This document shows positions 1,457 to 11,233 of a stretch of 15,932 nucleotides of DNA, piece by piece; the stretch's first letter is position 1; the number at the start of each line of letters is the position of its first letter. The DNA comes from a virus. The stretch is taken from UHGV virus genome UHGV-0132370, one strand, 5' to 3'. The translations under genes and the position numbers were made by a program. The notes beneath the pieces are model-generated. The model had not been told where the DNA came from. It searched no databases and worked only from the letters and a program-made list of their open reading frames with translations.

Positions 1457-1881
1457 ACCGGTTGCTGCTGGTTGTGCTGGCGTTATTACTGGCGTCGCTG
1501 GGCTGGCAGACGTGGCGGCTGGCTGATGCCAGCCAGACCATCAGCACGCAGGCAGACGAGCTGCAGAGCAAAAGCCAGGCGCTGGCAAAGAGCAACAACC
1601 AGCTTATCAGCCTGTCCATTCTGACTGAAACTAACAACCGGGAGCAGGCGCGGCTCTATGCCGAAGCAGAACAGACCAGTGCACTGCTGAGACAACGACA
1701 ACGCCGGATTGAGGAACTGAAACGTGAGAACGAGGATTTACGCCGCTGGGCTGATACTCCTTTGCCTGCTGACATTATCCGGCTGCGGGAACGTCCGGCA
1801 CTCACCGGAGGTGCAGCTTACCGTCAGTGGTTGTCCGCGAGTGACGCCGTGTCAGCTGGATCAGGCAGCGCCACACAATAA
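1453..1881 (+). CDS. lysB: Inner-membrane spanin, LysB/Rz-like
   Basis: N-terminal TM segment (LLLVVLALLLASLGW) followed by a charged coiled-coil-like region (QRQRRIEELKRENEDLRRW); ATGA overlap with lysA stop. Confidence 0.8.
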   Translation: MNRLLLVVLALLLASLGWQTWRLADASQTISTQADELQSKSQALAKSNNQLISLSILTETNNREQARLYAEAEQTSALLRQRQRRIEELKRENEDLRRWADTPLPADIIRLRERPALTGGAAYRQWLSASDAVSAGSGSATQ

Positions 1882-2014
1882 CGGTGATCTGAACGCATTG
1901 CTGGATGAAACGGAGGCCGCCTGGGCGGTCTGTGCAGACAAAGTGGACATGATTATTGCGTGTCAGGAGCGAAACAGTGAACAAACCACAATCCCTGCGC
2001 CACGCCCTCAATAA
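1724..2014 (+). CDS. lysC: Outer-membrane lipoprotein spanin, LysC/Rz1-like, in +1 frame overlapping lysB 3' end and R 5' end
   Basis: GTG start at 1724 preceded by GAGGA (1711-1715); lipoprotein signal with lipobox LTLSGC; Pro-rich mature part; embedded/overlapping arrangement typical of Rz/Rz1 and P2 lysB/lysC. Confidence 0.75.
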   Translation: MRTRIYAAGLILLCLLTLSGCGNVRHSPEVQLTVSGCPRVTPCQLDQAAPHNNGDLNALLDETEAAWAVCADKVDMIIACQERNSEQTTIPAPRPQ

Positions 2015-2408
2015 AGCAGTGCCTTATGTCCGTAATAACCCGGACAAACTGCATCTGTTTGTGGATAACGGTTCGCTGGTTGCCACTGGGGCCAGCTCCA
2101 TGTCATGGGAGTACCGCTACACCCTGAACGTGGTAATTGAAGATTTCAGCGGCGACCAGAATCTGCTGATGGCCCCGGTTTTGCTGTGGCTGCGGGATAA
2201 CCAGTCTGATGCCATCAATAACCCGACGTTACGGGAAAAGCTATTCACCTTTGAGGTGGATATTCTGCGCAACGATGTCTGTGATATCAGCCTGAACCTG
2301 CAGCTGACGGAGCGTGTGCTGGTCAGCACTGACGGAAGTGTGTCGAGCGTTGAAGCGATAACGGAACCCGATGAACCTGAAGAAATGTGGACGGTGAAAC
2401 GTGGCTGA
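1977..2408 (+). CDS. R: Tail completion protein R (P2 gpR-like)
   Basis: ORF following the lysis cassette as in P2; likely GTG start at 1977 preceded by AGGAG (1964-1968); the track ORF begins at an upstream TTG (1956). Start is uncertain. Confidence 0.75.
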   Translation: MNKPQSLRHALNKAVPYVRNNPDKLHLFVDNGSLVATGASSMSWEYRYTLNVVIEDFSGDQNLLMAPVLLWLRDNQSDAINNPTLREKLFTFEVDILRNDVCDISLNLQLTERVLVSTDGSVSSVEAITEPDEPEEMWTVKRG

Positions 2409-2847
2409 ACTGCAGAAAGTGGACGACTGGCTGAGTGCCTTGCTGGCGAATCTGGAGCCAGCCGCAAGAAGCCGCATGATGCGCCAGCTGGCGCAGGAAC
2501 TACGCCGGACACAGCAGCAAAATATCAGAATGCAGCGCAATCCAGATGGCAGCAGTTATGAACCGCGACGGGTAACAGCACGCAGTAAAAAAGGCCGTAT
2601 CAAACGTCAGATGTTTGCAAAGCTGCGCACCACAAAATACCTGAAAACTTCCGCCAGCGCCGACTCTGCCAGCGTGCAGTTTGAAGGCAAGGTACAGCGC
2701 ATTGCCCGTGTTCATCACTACGGCTTACGTGATCGCGTCAGCCGCAAAGGACCGGAGGTCCGTTACGCAGAGCGTCGCCTTCTGGGTGTAAATGATGATG
2801 TTGAGGCAATGACCCGCGACATGATTCTGCAATGGCTGGCGGGGTGA
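2401..2847 (+). CDS. S: Tail completion protein S (P2 gpS-like)
   Basis: 148-aa ORF, position and size as P2 gpS; GTG at 2401 overlaps the R stop (2406-2408). Confidence 0.75.
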   Translation: MAELQKVDDWLSALLANLEPAARSRMMRQLAQELRRTQQQNIRMQRNPDGSSYEPRRVTARSKKGRIKRQMFAKLRTTKYLKTSASADSASVQFEGKVQRIARVHHYGLRDRVSRKGPEVRYAERRLLGVNDDVEAMTRDMILQWLAG

Positions 2848-2851
2848 TTTT

Positions 2852-2869
2852 TGTATCAGCACTGATACA
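2852..2869 (+). promoter_or_regulatory. TGT-N12-ACA dyad (tgtatcagcactgataca), candidate Ogr/Delta-type late activator site of the promoter preceding V
   Basis: Perfect 8+8 inverted repeat tgtatcag/ctgataca in the only sizeable intergenic gap (2848..2915) between S and V, where P2 carries its late promoter for the V operon. Confidence 0.6.
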
Positions 2870-2915
2870 AGTTGCAGCACTGCCGCCTTTCTTCCCCTGA
2901 TGGCAACCTTTCCCT

Positions 2916-3494
2916 ATGAACGCACAATTAACCGAAATCATGCGCCTTATCACCAACCTGATCCGCACTGGGGTAGTCACCGAAGTGGACAGGACAAACT
3001 GGCTTTGCCGGGTGAAAACGGGCGACCTTGAAACCAACTGGATCAGCTGGCTGACGCTGCGTGCCGGGAATGCCCGGACATGGTGGCGACCATCGGAAGG
3101 TGAGCAGGTGGTGCTGCTGAGTATGGGCGGTAATCTGGAAACAGCTTTTGCGCTGCCCGCCATCTATTCGAATCAGTTCGCACCACCGTCGACGTCGGCG
3201 GACGCCTGCGTGACAGAACATCCTGACGGTGGCTGGTTTGAATACGAACCTGCCACCGGGCGCTGGTATGTCAGGGGCATCAAATCCATGGTCATTGAGG
3301 CTGCCGATAACATCACCCTGAAAACCAGTGAGTTTGTGCTGGAGGCTGAGTGCACGCGTATTAACAGCGAAGTGGTGGTCAATGGTGGCGTTACTCAGGG
3401 CGGCGGAGCGATGAGTTCTAACGGGATCGTGGTTGATGCACATCAGCATACTGGCGTCCTGAAAGGCGGCGATACAACCGGAGGCCCGGTATGA
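2916..3494 (+). CDS. V: Baseplate central spike protein V (P2 gpV-like)
   Basis: 192-aa ORF at the gpV position; Gly-rich C-terminal region (VNGGVTQGGGAMSSNGIVVDAHQHTGVLKGGDTTGGPV) typical of spike tips; an alternative start at ATG 2940 is possible. Confidence 0.8.
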   Translation: MNAQLTEIMRLITNLIRTGVVTEVDRTNWLCRVKTGDLETNWISWLTLRAGNARTWWRPSEGEQVVLLSMGGNLETAFALPAIYSNQFAPPSTSADACVTEHPDGGWFEYEPATGRWYVRGIKSMVIEAADNITLKTSEFVLEAECTRINSEVVVNGGVTQGGGAMSSNGIVVDAHQHTGVLKGGDTTGGPV

Positions 3495-3850
3495 CGCTTT
3501 ATAGCGGGATGAACAATACCAGCGGTAAAGCCATTACTGATATTGACCATCTGCGCCAGTCGGTGCGGGACATTTTGCTGACGCCGCAGGGTAGCCGCAT
3601 TGCCCGTCGGGAATATGGTTCCCTGCTGTCGGCACTGATAGACCAGCCACAAAATCCGGCATTACGCCTGCAGGTCATGTCGGCAGTGTATGTGGCGCTG
3701 AGTCGCTGGGAGCCACGGCTGACGCTGGATTCCATCACCATTAACAGCAATTTTGACGGTTCAATGGTGGTGGAGCTGACCGGGCGGCGTAATAACGGTG
3801 TGCCTGTTTCCCTTTCCGTATCAACAGGAGCAGAGAATGGCAGTGATTGA
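3491..3850 (+). CDS. W: Baseplate wedge protein W (gp25-like)
   Basis: 119-aa ORF, ATGA overlap with V stop; size and position as P2 gpW. Confidence 0.8.
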   Translation: MTLYSGMNNTSGKAITDIDHLRQSVRDILLTPQGSRIARREYGSLLSALIDQPQNPALRLQVMSAVYVALSRWEPRLTLDSITINSNFDGSMVVELTGRRNNGVPVSLSVSTGAENGSD

Positions 3851-4745
3851 CCTTTCGCAGTTGCCTGCGCCGCAGATTGTGGATGTGCCGGACTTTGAGA
3901 CGCTGCTTGCCGAACGCAAGGCCGAATTTGTTGCGCTTCATCCGAAAGATGAGCAGGAAGCAGTGATCCGCACGCTGGAACTGGAATCTGAACCCGTCAC
4001 CAAATTGCTTCAGGAGAACGCTTACCGTGAGTTGCTTCTGCGCCAGCGCATTAACGAAGCCGCGCATGCTGTGATGGTGGCTTACGCGATGGGCGGCGAT
4101 CTTGACCAGCTCGCTGCCAACTACAACGTGAAACGCCTGACGGTGACGCCTGCTGATAATGACGCTGTGCCACCCGTTGCGGCTGTGATGGAAAGCGATG
4201 AAGCGTTACGCCTGCGTGTGCCTGCGGCTTTTGAAGGGCTTTCGGTTGCGGGGCCAACCGCAGCTTATGAATTTCATGCCCGAAGCGCCGACGGTCGGGT
4301 GGCGGATGCCAGTGCAACCAGCCCGGCACCTGCAGAGGTGGTGCTTACGGTCCTAAGCCGTGAAGGCGACGGAACAGCAGAAAAAGACCTGCTGGACGTG
4401 GTGGAAAAAGCTCTGAACAGTGAGAACGTTCGCCCGGTGGCTGACCGTCTGACGGTTCGCAGCGCAGAAATCATCCCGTATCGCGTGGAAGCCACCATTT
4501 TTCTCTATCCGGGGCCGGAAGCAGAGCCGGTAATGGCAGCGGCAAAAGCCAGCCTGCAGAAATACATCGCCAGTCAGACGCGGCTTGGTAGGGATATTCG
4601 CCGTAGCGCCATCTTTGCCGCCCTGCATGTTGAGGGTGTACAGCGTGTGGAGCTGGCTTCGCCGCTGGCGGATGTGGTTTTGAACAAAACGCAGGCGGCA
4701 TCATGTACGGAGTGGAGCGTGACCAACGGGGGAACGGATGAATAG
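3837..4745 (+). CDS. J: Baseplate assembly protein J
   Basis: ATG at 3837 preceded by CAGGAG (3824-3829), 302 aa like P2 gpJ; the track ORF starting at 3798 includes an unlikely upstream extension. Confidence 0.85.
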   Translation: MAVIDLSQLPAPQIVDVPDFETLLAERKAEFVALHPKDEQEAVIRTLELESEPVTKLLQENAYRELLLRQRINEAAHAVMVAYAMGGDLDQLAANYNVKRLTVTPADNDAVPPVAAVMESDEALRLRVPAAFEGLSVAGPTAAYEFHARSADGRVADASATSPAPAEVVLTVLSREGDGTAEKDLLDVVEKALNSENVRPVADRLTVRSAEIIPYRVEATIFLYPGPEAEPVMAAAKASLQKYIASQTRLGRDIRRSAIFAALHVEGVQRVELASPLADVVLNKTQAASCTEWSVTNGGTDE

Positions 4746-5343
4746 TCTGCTGCCATCGGGGTCAACTTCACTGGAGCGCCGACTGGCGCAAACGTGCAGC
4801 GGGATTTCTGATCTGCAGGTGCCGCTGCGTGACTTGTGGAATCCGGCTACCTGCCCGGTCAGCTTCCTGCCTTATCTCGCCTGGGCGTTCTCTGTGGATC
4901 GCTGGGACGAAGGCTGGACAGAAAGCGTCAAGCGCCAGGTGGTGAAGGATGCTTTTTATATTCATCAGCATAAAGGGACCACCAGTGCCGTGCGGCGGGT
5001 GGTGGAGCCGTTCGGCTTTCTGATCCGCATTATTGAGTGGTGGCAAACCGGAGAGGCACCGGGCACGTTTCGCCTGGATATCGGCGTGCAGGACCAGGGC
5101 ATCACTGAAGATACCTATCTGGAACTTGAGCGACTGATAAGCGATGCCAAACCATGTAGCCGCCACATGATCGGCATGTCCATCAATCTGCAGACCAGCG
5201 GCCCGTATTGGGTGGGAGCCGCCAGCTATCTTGGCGAAGAAATCACGATCTATCCGTATATCAACGAAACGATTATTTCCGGTGGCACCGCGCATGAAGG
5301 CGGGGCGGTCCATGTTATTGACACAATGAGAGTGAATCCATGA
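4738..5343 (+). CDS. I: Baseplate/tail protein I
   Basis: 201-aa ORF overlapping J stop and H start; position as P2 gpI. Confidence 0.8.
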   Translation: MNSLLPSGSTSLERRLAQTCSGISDLQVPLRDLWNPATCPVSFLPYLAWAFSVDRWDEGWTESVKRQVVKDAFYIHQHKGTTSAVRRVVEPFGFLIRIIEWWQTGEAPGTFRLDIGVQDQGITEDTYLELERLISDAKPCSRHMIGMSINLQTSGPYWVGAASYLGEEITIYPYINETIISGGTAHEGGAVHVIDTMRVNP

Positions 5344-6746
5344 GCACAAAATTTTATACCCTGCTGACGGATATTGGCGCGGCGAAACTTGCCAGCGCCG
5401 CCGCGCTCGGTGTGCCGCTAAAAATTACCCATATGGCGGTGGGCGATGGCGGCGGAGTATTGCCAACGCCGGACGCAAAGCAGACGGCACTGGTAAATGA
5501 GAAACGCCGGGCTGCGCTGAATATGCTCTATATCGACCCGCAGAACAGCAGCCAGATTATTGCTGAACAGGTGATCCCTGAAAACGAGGGCGGTTGGTGG
5601 ATACGTGAAGTGGGCCTGTTTGATGAGTCCGGGGCATTGATTGCCGTGGGCAACTGCCCGGAAAGCTATAAGCCGCAACTGGCTGAAGGCAGCGGGCGTA
5701 CCCAGACCGTGCGTATGGTGTTGATTACCAGCAGCACGGACAATATCACCCTGAAAATCGACCCTGCCGTAGTGCTGGCAACCCGCAAGTATGTGGATGA
5801 TAAGGTACTGGAGCTGAAGGTGTACGCGGATGATCAGATGGCAAAACATCTTGCCGCACCGGACCCGCATTCACAGTATGCACAGAAAGAAAGTCCTACG
5901 TTTACCGGGACACCCAAAGCGCCAACGCCAGCGGCGGGGAATAACACCACGCAGGTTGCGACCACCGCGTTTGTTCAGGAGGCACTGACGGCTCTTATTA
6001 ATGGTGCGCCAGCCACGCTGGACACGCTGAAAGAAATAGCCGTAGCCATTAACAATGATCCGAAATTCAGTACCACCATTAACAATGCGCTGGCACTGAA
6101 AGCGCCGCTGTCGAGTCCGGCACTCACCGGAACGCCAACAGCCCCCACGGCGGCGCAGTCGGTCAACAATACACAGATTGCCACCACGGCTTTTGTGAAA
6201 TCGGCGATTGCGGCAATGGTGGGTTCTGCACCTGCGGCACTGGATACACTGAACGAACTGGCGGCGGCGCTGGGGAATGACCCGAACTTTGCCACGACAA
6301 TGCTTAATGCACTGGCAGGTAAACAACCGCTGGACAATACGCTGACTAATTTGAGTGGAAAGGATGTTGCTGGTCTTCTCGCATACCTTGGTTTGGGAGA
6401 AGCGGCGAAAAGGGATGTGGGCACAGGAGATAATCAGATACCGGATATGGGAGCATTCGCTTCTGGTTCGGGATGGTTCAGGCTACCAGGTGGATATATT
6501 GTTCAGTTTGGCACTTTTTCAGGAAACACGACCCGCTTTATCAGTGGACACTTCCCTATACCATTCCCTAATCAGCCGATGGTTTCAGTCAGTGTTATGT
6601 CTGATGCCGTTCAGTCAGACCCGTCGATTCCTGCCCCGCAGGTTTTGTCTGTAAATTTTGAACGTATCAGTAATTCAGCGTGGCGTGTGGCAACCAGTGA
6701 TATCTCACAGCAATACAGATTCAGTTATATTTCGATAGGACGGTAG
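5340..6746 (+). CDS. H: Tail fibre protein H (constant N-terminal part 5340..6389 plus currently expressed variable C-terminal domain 6390..6746)
   Basis: 468-aa ORF with N-terminus MSTKFYTLLTDIGAAKLA..., internal tandem ~73-aa tail-fibre repeats, and a compositionally distinct (AT-richer) 3' end that begins at the left crossover site. Confidence 0.9.
   Translation: MSTKFYTLLTDIGAAKLASAAALGVPLKITHMAVGDGGGVLPTPDAKQTALVNEKRRAALNMLYIDPQNSSQIIAEQVIPENEGGWWIREVGLFDESGALIAVGNCPESYKPQLAEGSGRTQTVRMVLITSSTDNITLKIDPAVVLATRKYVDDKVLELKVYADDQMAKHLAAPDPHSQYAQKESPTFTGTPKAPTPAAGNNTTQVATTAFVQEALTALINGAPATLDTLKEIAVAINNDPKFSTTINNALALKAPLSSPALTGTPTAPTAAQSVNNTQIATTAFVKSAIAAMVGSAPAALDTLNELAAALGNDPNFATTMLNALAGKQPLDNTLTNLSGKDVAGLLAYLGLGEAAKRDVGTGDNQIPDMGAFASGSGWFRLPGGYIVQFGTFSGNTTRFISGHFPIPFPNQPMVSVSVMSDAVQSDPSIPAPQVLSVNFERISNSAWRVATSDISQQYRFSYISIGR
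6376..6401. repeat. Left crossover-like site (26 bp, ttctcgcatacc-tt-ggtttgggagaa) inside H; 6388..6401 is a 14-bp perfect inverted repeat of 8255..8268
   Basis: 12-2-12 dyad resembling gix/hix/cix invertase crossover sites; the reverse complement of 6388..6401 (ttctcccaaaccaa) is identical to 8255..8268. Confidence 0.75.
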
Positions 6747-6748
6747 AA

Positions 6749-7189
6749 ATGCAGAAATATATTTTCAGTGCCGATAAAAATGCGTTTTTCCCTGTGGAGC
6801 TTAAAATCGCTTATCAGGAATCCGGCGAATGGCCCGATGATGGAATCGAAATTGACGACACTGTTGCTGCCGAATTTATGAAGGAAGCACCAGAAGGAAA
6901 ATACAGAGGTGTCATCGACGGAATGCCTGCATGGATTGATATTCCACCGCCAACTCATGAGGAACAAATTGCCGCAGCCGAACTGAAAAAGCAGCAATTG
7001 ATTAATCAGGTCAACGAATACATAAACAGTAAGCAATGGCCTGGTAAAGCGGCGATTGGTCGCCTGAAAGGTGAGGAACTGGTGCAATATAATTTGTGGC
7101 TGGATTATCTGGACGCACTGGAACTGGTCGATACTTCCGGTGCGCCAGATATTGAATGGCCTACGCCTCCGGCAGTTCAGGCCAGATGA
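6749..7189 (+). CDS. G: Tail fibre assembly chaperone (P2 gpG-like / Tfa), partner of the current H C-terminus
   Basis: 146-aa ORF 3 bp after H stop; C-terminal motif LVDTSGAPDIEWPTPPA shared with the convergent - strand paralogue. Confidence 0.8.
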   Translation: MQKYIFSADKNAFFPVELKIAYQESGEWPDDGIEIDDTVAAEFMKEAPEGKYRGVIDGMPAWIDIPPPTHEEQIAAAELKKQQLINQVNEYINSKQWPGKAAIGRLKGEELVQYNLWLDYLDALELVDTSGAPDIEWPTPPAVQAR

Positions 7190-7763
7190 CATCAGGCGCG
7201 GTGCTGGTATCTGTTGCCGTCACCGCGTCAATATAATCCAGCACAGCGTTAAGTCGGGTTGTTTCTGCCTGCGTCAGCTTCCGTCCGGCCTGTAATTTCA
7301 GTTGAATCAGACTGATGGAAGACATTGCTGCATCAATCAGTGACTGGCGCTGTGCTTCTGCCGCTTCTACTGCGGCGCTATGCTGTGCCTCAGTATCCGT
7401 CACCCATTTCTCACCATCCCATTTATCATATGGCGTTAACGGGGCGATAGTGGTTGTATTTTCAGGGTAATCACCCAGAGATGTGATTTCTTTCGATTCT
7501 CCTGTTTCGGTGCTATAGATGATTTCACCGCGATGGTCTGGCACATATTCCCATGAGTTAAAATCTGCAGAGCGGCAGATTGCATAACCGGCTTTATGTG
7601 TACCTGGTGCATCTAAGCATGAATACGCCGGAATACCGACACCCACAGCAAGGTATTCGGTTGATGTGGAAAGATATTCCTTCGTCTCAGCATCAAAATT
7701 ATAAACGGTAATGTTTCCTGCCTTTGTAGTAATGAGTTCGCTATTTAATACGGCTTTATTCAT
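7161..7763 (-). CDS. Alternative tail fibre assembly chaperone (tfa'), partner of the silent fibre cassette
   Basis: 200-aa ORF on - strand, convergent with G (3' ends overlap 7161..7189); C-terminus DTSTAPDVIWPELPEA parallels the G C-terminus; start ATG overlaps the stop of the upstream - strand cassette (TGATG). Confidence 0.75.
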   Translation of the reverse strand: MNKAVLNSELITTKAGNITVYNFDAETKEYLSTSTEYLAVGVGIPAYSCLDAPGTHKAGYAICRSADFNSWEYVPDHRGEIIYSTETGESKEITSLGDYPENTTTIAPLTPYDKWDGEKWVTDTEAQHSAAVEAAEAQRQSLIDAAMSSISLIQLKLQAGRKLTQAETTRLNAVLDYIDAVTATDTSTAPDVIWPELPEA

Positions 7764-8268
7764 CAGGCTGCCCTCACGATATAGTTAAATGCGACGTTGC
7801 GCGGGTAACCTTCTTGGTTTCCAAAGGTGGGGCTCTGCGTAGTCACAGAAGTAGCAGAGTTGTTGTTTGTCCCGCCGCTGCCGCCAAGTGATCGGATAAC
7901 GCCGCCGTCGCCTGCTGTCGCTGCTGGCCCTAACTCCCTACCGTTCTGCGATGGTACAGTTGTACTAGTTGGGATGCTGCCGCTAGCCGATGTCCAAATT
8001 TCCAAGCCGTGGACGTGCGATCCTGGAGACCATCCCTGGCTAGACCCTATCGAACGCCCTGGATCAACCCCTCGCCCATCATCCCATCCACGAATAAATT
8101 CACCGCGCAGGTCTGGCAGCAAAAGACCGGGGTAAGCGAGAGCAAGCTTCGGATATTGGGAGGCGATAAATGGCGCACCGTTGCATTTCAACCAGCCTGT
8201 TGGCGGAGTTGCTAAAGGCCACGGAACAGGGACACCAACAGGTAATGCAGAGCCTTCTCCCAAACCAA
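7763..8268 (-). CDS. Alternative tail-fibre C-terminal cassette (H'), 167 codons, lacks own promoter and start; in frame with H constant part after inversion
   Basis: - strand frame reads GLGEGSALPVGVPVPWPLATPPTGWLKCNGAPF... starting inside the right crossover site; the GLGE codons (ggtttgggagaa) are the same as the GLGE codons of H at the left site. Confidence 0.7.
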
Positions 8269-8280
8269 CGTTTAAGAAAA
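8255..8280. repeat. Right crossover-like site (26 bp, ttctcccaaacc-aa-cgtttaagaaaa), inverted relative to the left site
   Basis: 12-2-12 organisation; 8255..8268 is the exact reverse complement of 6388..6401; lies about 55 bp upstream of the invertase start. Confidence 0.75.
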
Positions 8281-8335
8281 TGCAGAGGTAACAGCTAACT
8301 GGCATCATCTCCGGTTTTTATTCAGGGGGATGATC

Positions 8336-8902
8336 ATGCTTATTGGCTATGTACGCGTGTCAACAAATGACCAGAACACCGATTTGCAACGTAATGCACT
8401 GAACTGCGCGGGATGTGAGCGGATTTTTGAGGACAAAATCAGTGGCACTAAGTCCGACAGACCGGGGCTGAAAAAACTACTCAGGACACTATCGGCAGGA
8501 GACACGCTGGTTGTCTGGAAGCTGGACAGGTTGGGGCGCAGTATGCGGCATCTTGTTACGCTGATAGAAGAGTTGCGCCAGCGTGGTGTGAATTTCAGAA
8601 GCCTGACTGACAGTATTGATACCAGTACCCCAATGGGCCGTTTCTTTTTTCATGTCATGGGTGCCCTAGCTGAAATGGAACGCGAACTGATAGTTGAACG
8701 TACCAGGGCGGGGCTGGCTGCAGCTCGTGATAAAGGCAGAGTAGGTGGACGCCGTCCTAAGTTGACCACCGAACAGTGGGCACAGATTGGACGCTTACTC
8801 GAGGCCGGAGAATCAAGACAGCGTATTGCACTGATTTTTGATGTGGGTGTTTCCACAATTTATAGAAAATTTCCGGCAAATAAGAGTAATGAATCCCCCT
8901 GA
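8336..8902 (+). CDS. Serine DNA invertase, Gin/Hin/Cin/Pin family
   Basis: N-terminus MLIGYVRVSTNDQNTDLQRNAL... with the catalytic serine in YVRVSTNDQ, plus VVWKLDRLGRSMRHL and SLTDSIDTSTPMGRFFFHVMGALAEMERELIVERT, and a C-terminal HTH-like tail; ATG 8336 has better spacing to GGGGGA (8325-8330) than the in-frame ATG 8330. Confidence 0.9.
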   Translation: MLIGYVRVSTNDQNTDLQRNALNCAGCERIFEDKISGTKSDRPGLKKLLRTLSAGDTLVVWKLDRLGRSMRHLVTLIEELRQRGVNFRSLTDSIDTSTPMGRFFFHVMGALAEMERELIVERTRAGLAAARDKGRVGGRRPKLTTEQWAQIGRLLEAGESRQRIALIFDVGVSTIYRKFPANKSNESP

Positions 8903-8950
8903 ATCAGCATTATGTTGATTATCCCTGCAAGCAGACAAATACCGTTATTT

Positions 8951-8968
8951 TGTGTGAATAACGACACA
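8951..8968 (+). promoter_or_regulatory. TGT-N12-ACA dyad (tgtgtgaataacgacaca), candidate late activator site of the promoter preceding FI
   Basis: Dyad about 85 bp upstream of the FI ATG in the 142-bp gap after the invertase; spacing leaves roughly a 30-nt leader containing CAGGAGG (9029-9035). Confidence 0.55.
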
Positions 8969-9044
8969 ACTGCGCTTAGCTGTTTGTCAGGCACAATCAC
9001 TTCAACATAGGGCGAAGCCTAATCCAATCAGGAGGTTCGCCACT

Positions 9045-10217
9045 ATGGCTCAGGATTACCACCACGGGGTGCGCGTTGTTGAAGTCAACGAAGGCACCCG
9101 ATCTATTACCACGGTGAGCACCGCCATCGTGGGTATGGTCTGCACGGGCGATGATGCCGATGCAAAAATGTTTCCTCTTAATAAACCCGTGCTGATCACT
9201 GATGTGCTGACTGCCAGCGGTAAAGCGGGTGAGTCCGGTACTCTGGCCCGTTCGCTGGATGCCATCGCTGACCAGGCAAAACCCGTGACCATTGTTGTGC
9301 GTGTGCCGCAGGGTGAAACGGAAGACGAAACCACGACCAATATCATCGGCGCAGTGACTGCTGAAGGTAAAAAAACAGGTATGAAAGCCCTGTTATCTGC
9401 CCAGTCACAGCTCGGCGTTAAACCGCGCATTCTCGGCGTGCCAGGCCACGACACCAAGGCGGTAGCTACTGAGTTGCTGAGCGTGGCGCAAAGCCTGCGT
9501 GGATTTGCTTACCTGTCAGCGTATGGCTGCAAGACAGTGCAGGAGGCGATCACTTACCGCGAAAACTTCAGCCAGCGCGAAGGGATGCTGATCTGGCCTG
9601 ACTTTACTGGCTGGGACACGGTGCTGAATGCCGAAGCAACGGCATATGCCACCGCCCGTGCGCTTGGTCTGCGCGCCAAAATTGACGAGCAGACCGGATG
9701 GCACAAAAGCCTGTCCAATGTGGGCGTGAACGGTGTCACCGGAATTTCTGCAGATGTGTTCTGGGATCTGCAGGACCCGGCAACCGATGCAGGTCTGCTG
9801 AACCAGAACGACGTCACCACGCTTGTGCGTAAAGACGGTTTCCGCTTCTGGGGGTCCCGCTGCCTGAGTGATGACCCGCTCTTTGCCTTCGAAAACTACA
9901 CCCGCACGGCGCAGGTGCTGACGGACACGATGGCAGAAGCACACATGTGGGCGGTGGATAAACCGCTTAACCCGTCGCTGGCCCGCGACATTATCGAAGG
10001 TATCCGCGCCAAAATGCGCAGACTGGTCAGTCAGGGCTATCTCATTGGTGGTGATTGCTGGCTGGATGAGTCGGTGAACGACAAAGACACGCTGAAAGCC
10101 GGAAAACTCACCATCGACTACGACTACACGCCAGTGCCGCCACTTGAAAACCTGATGCTGCGTCAGCGCATCACCGATCAGTACCTGGTGAATTTCGCCA
10201 GCCAGGTCAGCGCGTAA
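9045..10217 (+). CDS. FI: Contractile tail sheath protein FI
   Basis: 390-aa ORF beginning [19 protein letters not shown]..., closely matching my recollection of P2 FI throughout (e.g. [31 protein letters not shown]); strong RBS. Confidence 0.92.
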
Positions 10218-10226
10218 GGGGACAAC

Positions 10227-10742
10227 ATGGCTTTACCACGCAAATTAAAACACCTGAACCTGTTTAACGACGGGAACAACTGGCAGGGGATCGTTGAGTC
10301 GCTGACGCTGCCGAAATTTACCCGCAAATATGAGAAGTATCGCGGCGGCGGAATGCCGGGTGCGGTGGATGTGGATCTGGGGCTTGATGACAGTGCGCTG
10401 GACACAGAATTTTCCATTGGTGGTACTGAATTGCTGCTGTTTAAACAGATGGGTAAAGCCACGGTGGATGGCATCCAGCTGCGCTTTACCGGCTCTATTC
10501 AGCGTGACGATACCGGGGAAGTGCAGGCCGTGGAGCTTGTCGTGCGTGGACGTCACAAAGAAGTGGATTCCGGCGAGTGGAAGACGGGCGAAAGCAACAC
10601 CACCAAAGTGACCAGTACCAACAGCTACGCGAAGCTGACCATCAATGGTGAGGTGCTCTATGAAGTGGACCTTATCAACATGGTGGAAATTGTGGACGGT
10701 GTGGACCTGATGGAAGCGCACCGCAACGCCCTCGGCCTCTGA
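10227..10742 (+). CDS. FII: Tail tube protein FII
   Basis: 171-aa ORF 9 bp after FI; size and position as P2 FII. Confidence 0.88.
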   Translation: MALPRKLKHLNLFNDGNNWQGIVESLTLPKFTRKYEKYRGGGMPGAVDVDLGLDDSALDTEFSIGGTELLLFKQMGKATVDGIQLRFTGSIQRDDTGEVQAVELVVRGRHKEVDSGEWKTGESNTTKVTSTNSYAKLTINGEVLYEVDLINMVEIVDGVDLMEAHRNALGL

Positions 10743-10753
10743 TATATCTGAAC

Positions 10754-10771
10754 GGCGCGGGATACCGCGCC
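10754..10771 (+). other. GC-rich stem-loop (ggcgcgg-gata-ccgcgcc) in the FII-E intergenic gap; not followed by a U-tract
   Basis: 7-bp perfect stem with 4-nt loop seen directly; the downstream sequence agaacccaattgac is not T-rich, so this is not a canonical intrinsic terminator. Confidence 0.35.
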
Positions 10772-10796
10772 AGAACCCAATTGACAGGACAGCAAA

Positions 10797-11099
10797 ATGA
10801 GCGATAAGCAGACTGAAAAGACCATTCAACTGGATACCCCCATCAAGCGCGGTAAAACAGAAATCACCGAAATTGTGCTGCGTAAACCGCAGTCCGGTGC
10901 GCTGCGCGGTACACGCCTGCAGGCCATTATGGATATGGATGTAAACGCGATGATGACCGTGATCCCCCGCATCTCCAGTCCGGCACTGACTGCACAGGAA
11001 ATTGCAGAGATGGACCCGGCAGATCTCACTGCCATGTCGGTTGAGGTTGTCACTTTTTTGTTGAAGAAGTCGGTGCTTGCCGGTTTACCGACAGCCTGA
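10797..11099 (+). CDS. E: Tail assembly chaperone E (0-frame product)
   Basis: 100-aa ORF at the gpE position between FII and T; contains the slippery heptamer near its 3' end. Confidence 0.85.
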   Translation: MSDKQTEKTIQLDTPIKRGKTEITEIVLRKPQSGALRGTRLQAIMDMDVNAMMTVIPRISSPALTAQEIAEMDPADLTAMSVEVVTFLLKKSVLAGLPTA

Positions 11100-11233
11100 C
11101 GGTTGACGATCTGGTGGCAGATATCGCCACCATTTTTCACTGGCCGCCATCCGTTACTGACGTTATGCCGCTGACCGAAGTGCTGGAATGGCGGTATAAA
11201 GCGATTCAGAGAAGCGGGGCCAACGATGAGTGA
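10797..11233 (+). CDS. E': Tail assembly chaperone E+E' (-1 programmed frameshift product; frame changes at 11054..11060, stop at 11231..11233)
   Basis: Heptamer T_TTT_TTG (11054..11060) in the E frame; the -1 frame is open from there to TGA at 11231-11233, overlapping the T start at 11226. Confidence 0.7.
11054..11060 (+). other. Slippery heptamer T_TTT_TTG for -1 ribosomal frameshift (E to E')
   Basis: X_XXY_YYZ pattern in the zero frame of E (codons act-ttt-ttg), with the -1 frame open downstream. Confidence 0.7.

Follow-up and report, generated by a model that had tools for sequence, protein, structure and literature searches.

A P2-like tail-fibre gene with two alternative in-frame C-terminal ends and a highly probable Pin/Gin-type inversion switch

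We analysed a stretch of 15,932 nucleotides from the virus genome UHGV-0132370 (the window), in which a tail-fibre gene of the P2 H type is followed by two chaperone genes of opposite orientation and by a gene for a serine DNA invertase. The locus contains the following features, from left to right:

4738-5343: P2 gene I (Pfam Tail_P2_I).
5340-6746, + strand: open reading frame (ORF) of tail-fibre gene H in its current state, 468 amino acids (aa), P2 H-type.
5340-6389, + strand: constant part of H, codons 1-350, common to both orientations (Pfam Phage_tail_fib, E=5.9e-65, residues 1-150).
6376-6401: predicted left crossover site of the pix/gix type, 12+2+12 bp, centre TT at 6388-6389, inside the H reading frame.
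6390-8266: invertible segment, 1877 bp, reversed or collinear in near-identical relatives.
6390-6746, + strand: variable fibre C-terminus in current use, 118 codons (Gp53-like_C, PF21882, E=8.7e-08, H residues 381-468).
6749-7189, + strand: assembly chaperone of the current C-terminus, 146 aa (Caudo_TAP, E=9.3e-34; 58% identity to e14 TfaP).
7161-7763, - strand: alternative chaperone of the TfaE type, 200 aa (Caudo_TAP, E=1.6e-32; 90% identity to e14 TfaE).
7763-8266, - strand: alternative, silent fibre C-terminus, 167 codons plus stop (Collar, PF07484, E=1.1e-12; 57% identity to the variable part of e14 StfE).
8255-8280: predicted right crossover site, centre AA at 8267-8268.
8336-8902, + strand: serine DNA invertase of the Pin/Gin/Cin/Hin family, 188 aa (Pfam Resolvase, E=7e-53; HTH_7, E=1.5e-15).
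8358-8420: putative Fis-dependent recombinational enhancer with two Fis-like 15-bp cores, inside the 5' end of the invertase gene.
9045-10217: tail sheath gene.

The setting is a P2-like late tail operon, which we recognized by the gene order ...V-W-J-I-H-(G)-FI-FII-E/E'-T... together with protein families of the P2 type: the Tail_P2_I gene precedes an H gene with the corresponding N-terminal domain, and the sheath gene lies downstream. Annotated relatives that are collinear with the window carry baseplate V/W/J/I, sheath, tube and GpE genes, and the megablast matches include P2-type records of Escherichia phages, pro483 and a Felsduovirus; the nearest records are a contig labelled as a Klebsiella phage and prophages of E. 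coli. TGT-N12-ACA dyads, which we take to be the motif of P2 late promoters activated by Ogr/Delta, are located at 8951-8968, upstream of the sheath gene, and at 2852-2869, upstream of a baseplate V-like gene that starts at 2916. The positions of these dyads suggest that the invertase gene is placed between two late operons. Further to the right, a TTTTTTG heptamer (11054-11060) near the end of a 100-aa ORF (10797-11099), upstream of a 1025-aa ORF of tape-measure size, presumably marks the position of the -1 programmed frameshift of P2 E/E'; relatives annotate a 'GpE family' protein right after the 100-aa ORF.

Within this operon, the cassette consists of the constant part of H, a variable end with its chaperone, an inverted chaperone with the alternative end, and then the resolvase-family invertase. 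It has the makeup of the Mu G, P1 C and e14 P cassettes: a crossover point in the fibre ORF, a constant N-terminus, two in-frame C-termini and a chaperone after each of them. Apart from their GLGE start, the two variable ends show no relationship. The current end leads into its chaperone gene through TAG-AA-ATG and the silent end through TGATG, in which the ATG of the chaperone overlaps the stop codon; each variable end is thus predicted to be translationally coupled to its own chaperone. The silent end has no start codon of its own in any sensible place, and its chaperone gene acquires the same orientation as H only once the segment is inverted. The ORF finder lists a 181-aa ORF on the - strand (7763-8308) whose ATG, at 8308, lies beyond the right site. 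This ORF is the promoterless alternative C-terminal cassette with a spurious 5' extension into the region upstream of the invertase. Its equivalent is annotated as a separate 'phage tail protein' in a RefSeq relative (L002, 6174-6725) and as the pseudogene stfE in K-12. The two chaperone genes converge, and their 3' ends overlap by 29 bp (7161-7189). An 18-nt inverted repeat of 89% identity (7099-7116 and 7225-7242) flanks this overlap and represents the same conserved C-terminal motif, LDYLDA or LDYIDA, encoded on opposite strands.

The left site reads TTCTCGCATACC TT GGTTTGGGAGAA and the right site TTCTCCCAAACC AA CGTTTAAGAAAA. In each, two 12-bp halves flank a 2-bp centre with imperfect dyad symmetry (20/26 and 16/26 positions, respectively). 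Compared in inverted orientation, the sites match at 21 of 26 positions and have an exact 15-bp core in common (6388-6402 and 8254-8268). Inverted 26-bp sites with matching, non-palindromic cores are what characterizes the Din family. Allowing up to two mismatches, the 15-mer core is present at only these two places in the 15.9-kb window, against 0.03 occurrences expected from shuffles. A degenerate 26-bp consensus, which was built in part from the window's own two sites, also identifies only these two places at up to three mismatches (0.01 expected from shuffles). The inverted repeat is far above chance, and every related locus with a complete cassette that we fetched contains exactly two sites in inverted orientation.

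A third candidate site, at 7638-7663 on the - strand (CAACCGAATACC TT GCTGTGGGTGTC), lies in frame within the TfaE-type chaperone gene. It matches the left site at 15 of 18 positions and encodes EYLAVG, to be compared with AYLGLG in H. We rejected this candidate: it differs from the site consensus by more than three mismatches, and e14 TfaE encodes the same peptide, EYLAVGVGI, with other synonymous bases, so that the resemblance is not conserved at the DNA level and appears to be due to chance. With this candidate rejected, and with exactly two sites in the relatives as well, a multi-site system similar to Min or the shufflons is ruled out. In one E. coli relative (L002, 4787-4812 and 6672-6697), both inner half-sites carry the same synonymous change, from GGTTTGGGAGAA to GGTTTAGGAGAA (Leu TTG to TTA), and the two arms therefore co-vary. 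In another relative, L019, this change is found in one arm only.

An earlier note on this DNA had proposed that the crossover site lies inside the H reading frame and that inversion would exchange the fibre C-terminus exactly in frame. Its reading of the anatomy and of the fusion is correct. The left site is spanned by the codons tac-ctt-ggt-ttg-gga-gaa (YLGLGE), which we confirmed as codons 349-354 of the 5340-6746 ORF, and codon 350 of H ends at 6389. The central dinucleotide provides codon positions 2-3 of the leucine in YLGLGE, as it does in NLGLGE of e14 and NLGLQE of Mu. Reverse-complementing 6390-8266 in silico produced one uninterrupted ORF from 5340, with no frame break at the junction. 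The product has 517 aa compared with 468 aa now, exactly the 350 + 167 codons that had been predicted. The junction of the inverted state reads ...AYLGLGE followed by GSALPVGVPVPW (over a longer stretch, ...AYLGLGE followed by GSALPVGVPVPWPLATPPTGW); the junction peptides of the two fibre states are ...AYLGLGEAAK and ...AYLGLGEGSALPVGVPVPWPLATPPTGWLK. The same xLGLGE or xLGLQE motif is found in the same phase in e14 StfP and Mu S, in agreement with the idea that inner arms encoding GLGE keep both orientations translatable. On the - strand of the right site, the earlier note had read NVGLGE. The GLGE half of this reading stands and the 'NV' half does not: those codons belong to the outer half, which is never joined to the fibre, and form part of the untranslated spacer that precedes the invertase gene.

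The swapped state constructed in silico is also present in near-identical natural sequences. A 600-nt query representing the recombinant left junction matched Klebsiella phage KP12 (OM835953.1) end to end at 99.5%. At base level, window positions 1590-6402 are collinear with KP12, positions 6388-8271 are reversed at 99.7% identity, and positions 8254-11190 are again collinear at 99.9%. An IMG/VR contig, L024, shows the same arrangement: flanks of 99.0% and 99.9% identity to the window enclose positions 6385-8271, which are reversed at 99.7%. Its fibre ORF is intact at 517 aa and differs from the in-silico product at three residues (514/517 identical). In both flipped relatives, the segment is reversed at 99.6-99.7% between collinear flanks of 98.6-99.9%, and the breakpoints relative to the window fall inside the 15-bp core. 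A second IMG/VR contig, L016, has the arrangement of the window throughout 4738-10217, at 99.5% identity. Both states exist in nature in essentially the same phage, with L016 arranged as the window and L024 and KP12 flipped, at more than 99% identity; the window itself contains one orientation only. In KP12, the loss of one nucleotide from a G-run at codon 416 divides the fused fibre into coding sequences of 422 aa and 80 aa. This deletion is probably a sequencing error, but it could be real decay; we have dropped KP12 as proof of an expressed fused fibre and use L024 as the intact example.

The two junctions are also found more widely. In IMG/VR, a pattern scan detected one or the other junction in 23 contigs, 18 of which carry the collar-type end on the constant part, three the window type and two other ends. 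Among complete E. coli genomes that cover at least 80% of the 600-nt queries, 31 have the window-type junction and 181 the collar-type junction. An exact-pattern scan of the GTDB species-representative genomes for either junction gave no match.

The invertase aligns with the Mu Gin sequences of known crystal structure (3UJ3 and 4M6F; E=3e-93 for 3UJ3, residues 1-184) and is 86% identical to e14 PinE and 75% identical to Mu Gin. Its MLIGYVRVSTNDQ motif aligns with Ser9 of Gin, the nucleophile of Gin-type invertases (PMC3575834); the catalytic serine is conserved, and R42 is present as well. Invertases that depend on Fis and an enhancer are distinguished by uniquely conserved basic residues at Hin positions 47, 48 and 51 in helix B and by Gln151, Arg154 and Leu155 in helix 1 of the DNA-binding domain (McLean et al., PMC3798978). 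The equivalent residues are found in the window's invertase: K46, K47 and R50 (Hin numbering minus 1), and a QIGRLL stretch that aligns with QISRLL of Hin. A perfect 12-nt inverted repeat (ATTCAGGGGGAT at 8320-8331 and ATCCCCCTGAAT at 8893-8904) brackets the invertase ORF almost exactly; the 3.7-kb region that was scanned should contain roughly 0.4 pairs of this kind by chance, and the repeat may mean nothing.

Under a loose consensus that gives six matches in 220 positions, the 5' end of the invertase gene contains two Fis-like cores, at 8358 (TGTCAACAAATGACC) and 8406 (GCGCGGGATGTGAGC), with a distance of exactly 48 bp between them. A spacing of 48 bp between the two Fis sites of the enhancer was reportedly described by Johnson, Glasgow and Simon in 1987. 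Measured between centres, the first core is about 98 bp away from the right site. In the Hin system, the proximal Fis site is located about 100 bp from hixL (PMC3798978), and the title of Kahmann et al. 1985, as cited in PMC3798978, places the stimulatory site of Gin within the invertase gene. At the DNA level, 8358-8420 is conserved with the 5' ends of both pinE and gin, a conservation that is confounded by the conserved N-terminus encoded there. These features are consistent with, but not proof of, a recombinational enhancer.

The closest relative of the switch is the P segment of e14, which we compared directly in the E. coli K-12 sequence. Gene order and orientation are identical (stfP-tfaP-tfaE-stfE-pinE), and both systems place the crossover in an xLGLGE motif, with no difference in codon phase. 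The e14 sites read CTCTCGAAAACC TT GGTTTGGGAGAA and TTTTCATAAACG TT GGTTTGGGAGAA: the inner half and the core are identical to those of the window, and the right outer half-site is one base apart. The two systems differ in their surroundings, since e14 is a lambdoid defective element, whereas the window carries a P2-like myovirus tail operon (I, H, then sheath FI). They also differ in the fibre itself: the constant part in the window is a 350-residue N-terminus of the P2 H type, unlike that of e14, and the current C-terminus, a member of the Gp53-like_C family, shares only 33% identity with the end of e14 StfP. The Mu G segment with Gin (S-U / U'-S') resembles the window in having a constant fibre N-terminus, two convergent variable ends with cognate chaperones, and the invertase gene immediately downstream. 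The sites of the window can be aligned with the gix sites of Mu, which share their 26-bp architecture and their codon phase (NLGLQE in Mu S). In contrast, the G segment is about 3 kb long, with 34-bp perfect repeats and a TC/GA core, compared with 1.9 kb, a 15-bp exact repeat and a TT/AA core in the window, and the variable ends of Mu are unrelated in sequence to those described here.

The C segment of P1 also switches tail-fibre ends, and its sites are located at the ends of inverted repeats of about 0.6 kb. Such a layout with long repeats is absent from the window but is seen in two IMG/VR relatives. In L010 (1051-1076 and 2919-2944) and L023 (10083-10108 and 11769-11794), the second site repeats the left site perfectly in inverse orientation and lies within a long inverted copy (several hundred bp, 73-82% identity to the window) of the last part of the H constant region; within the fetched DNA, no invertase match adjoins this second site. 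P1 Cin and Salmonella Hin belong to the same Fis/enhancer-dependent subclass of invertases as the window's enzyme and act on 26-bp sites (PMC3798978). Hin differs from the window in flipping a promoter rather than a coding end. The P2-like prophages of EPEC E2348/69 are comparable in layout: there, an invertase and inverted repeats switch the C-termini of tail fibres, and whole-genome sequencing revealed coexisting orientations (Goldberg et al. 2014, PMC4272514). One of the EPEC loci is a simple two-variant system, which resembles that of the window; another has three repeats and four variants (PMC4272514), as opposed to the two sites found here. Inversion has been shown experimentally for e14 and the EPEC P2-like prophages (PMC4272514) and for Mu (PMC3575834). 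Numerous annotated phage records have the same arrangement as the window, for example Cartapus, 500465-1, pro483 and P2-type phages from O157:H43.

Taken together, the data make it very probable that the late tail operon of this P2-like phage or prophage contains a Pin/Gin-type inversion switch, with 6376-6401 as one of its two crossover sites. By analogy with Mu, e14 and Hin, the invertase would bind the sites at 6376-6401 and 8255-8280 as dimers and would bring them into synapsis, most likely on the Fis-bound enhancer in the 5' end of its own gene. Staggered 2-bp cuts at the central TT/AA, a 180-degree rotation of one subunit pair and religation would then invert 6390-8266, and the present copy is expected to be active. 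With the left site located within H, and with G-L-G-E encoded by the two inner arms in a common phase, either end can be joined in frame to the N-terminal 350 residues. In the current state, H(1-350) would be produced with the 118-residue Gp53-like end (468 aa) and the 146-aa chaperone; in the flipped state, with the 167-residue Collar end (517 aa) and the 200-aa TfaE-type chaperone. Each variable end would bring its own downstream chaperone gene into the transcribed orientation, with the late operon reading through H. A population of lysogens could thereby release particles with two alternative receptor-binding tips, a form of host-range bet-hedging. That the two tips differ in receptor specificity is suggested by their different C-terminal domain families.

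An alternative that we consider unlikely is that the architecture derives from a switch but is now frozen in this copy, through a defective prophage, a silent invertase or a lost enhancer, so that the alternative end is a dead cassette. The single orientation in the window would fit such a relic, as would the frameshifted flipped fibre of KP12 and the state of e14 in K-12, a defective prophage in which stfE is annotated as a pseudogene. Yet even the defective e14 still inverts (PMC4272514). In the window, the invertase ORF is intact and has all catalytic and Fis-contact residues, and the ORFs of the two variable ends and the two chaperones are likewise intact and strongly matched to their families. 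Furthermore, both 26-bp sites are identical in relatives of more than 99% identity that represent both orientations, which points to recent flipping.

Even less probable is that both orientations were generated without the invertase, by rare homologous exchange (through RecA or a phage recombinase) or by horizontal replacement of the cassette. Tail-fibre regions are mosaic, and many IMG/VR contigs have the same 36-bp junction followed by a divergent distal C-terminus. KP12 itself is a mosaic with respect to the window: its left flank is 96.3% identical over 1590-6402 (98.6% over 4738-6402 alone), compared with 99.7-99.9% for the segment and everything to the right of it, a pattern that may reflect a recombination boundary in the tail genes or upstream of them. 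A replacement of the cassette is nevertheless difficult to reconcile with flipped relatives that retain the whole 1.9-kb segment at 99.6-99.7%, as would result from simple reversal. Homologous recombination is an unlikely cause of the flips because the core common to the two sites is only 15 bp long, too short for efficient exchange; the breakpoints lie in this core, exactly at a canonical 12+2+12 site, and a dedicated invertase adjoins the segment. A chance inverted repeat or an assembly artefact with a coincidental fusion has only the general 1-in-3 odds of frame compatibility on its side and can be dismissed, given that 0.01-0.03 occurrences are expected, that the fusion ORF is intact in an independent contig (L024) and that conservation of the sites, and of their codon phase, extends to e14 and Mu.

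The Pin/Gin-type reading places the locus among the classical tail-fibre inversion switches of the Gin/Cin/Pin/Hin family, the mechanism of which has been known since the work on the Mu G segment in the 1980s. P2-like prophages with such a switch are already documented, and the locus opens no new question. It does affect annotation: the true products are fibres of 468 aa and 517 aa with residues 1-350 in common, and the - strand ORF at 7763-8308 is not a separate gene. The phage probably has two adsorption specificities, only one of which is visible in a single assembly, a point of relevance to phage biology and therapy.

It is conceivable, although we lean against it, that pix-type sites also form the boundaries of a portable cassette that moves among lambdoid elements such as e14, Mu-like phages and P2-like phages. 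This reading is based on the identity of the cassette and right flank to KP12 (99.7-99.9%, compared with about 96% for the upstream tail genes), on the 90% identity of the TfaE-type chaperone to that of e14, and on the nearly identical e14 sites. If true, trans-activation by resident invertases of other prophages would be possible. The idea has been discussed in the older literature on tail-fibre mosaicism, and the present locus would add little to it. The KP12 record used in these comparisons (OM835953.1, clone KP12_3) is classified under Vequintavirinae, yet the contig is a P2-like genome.
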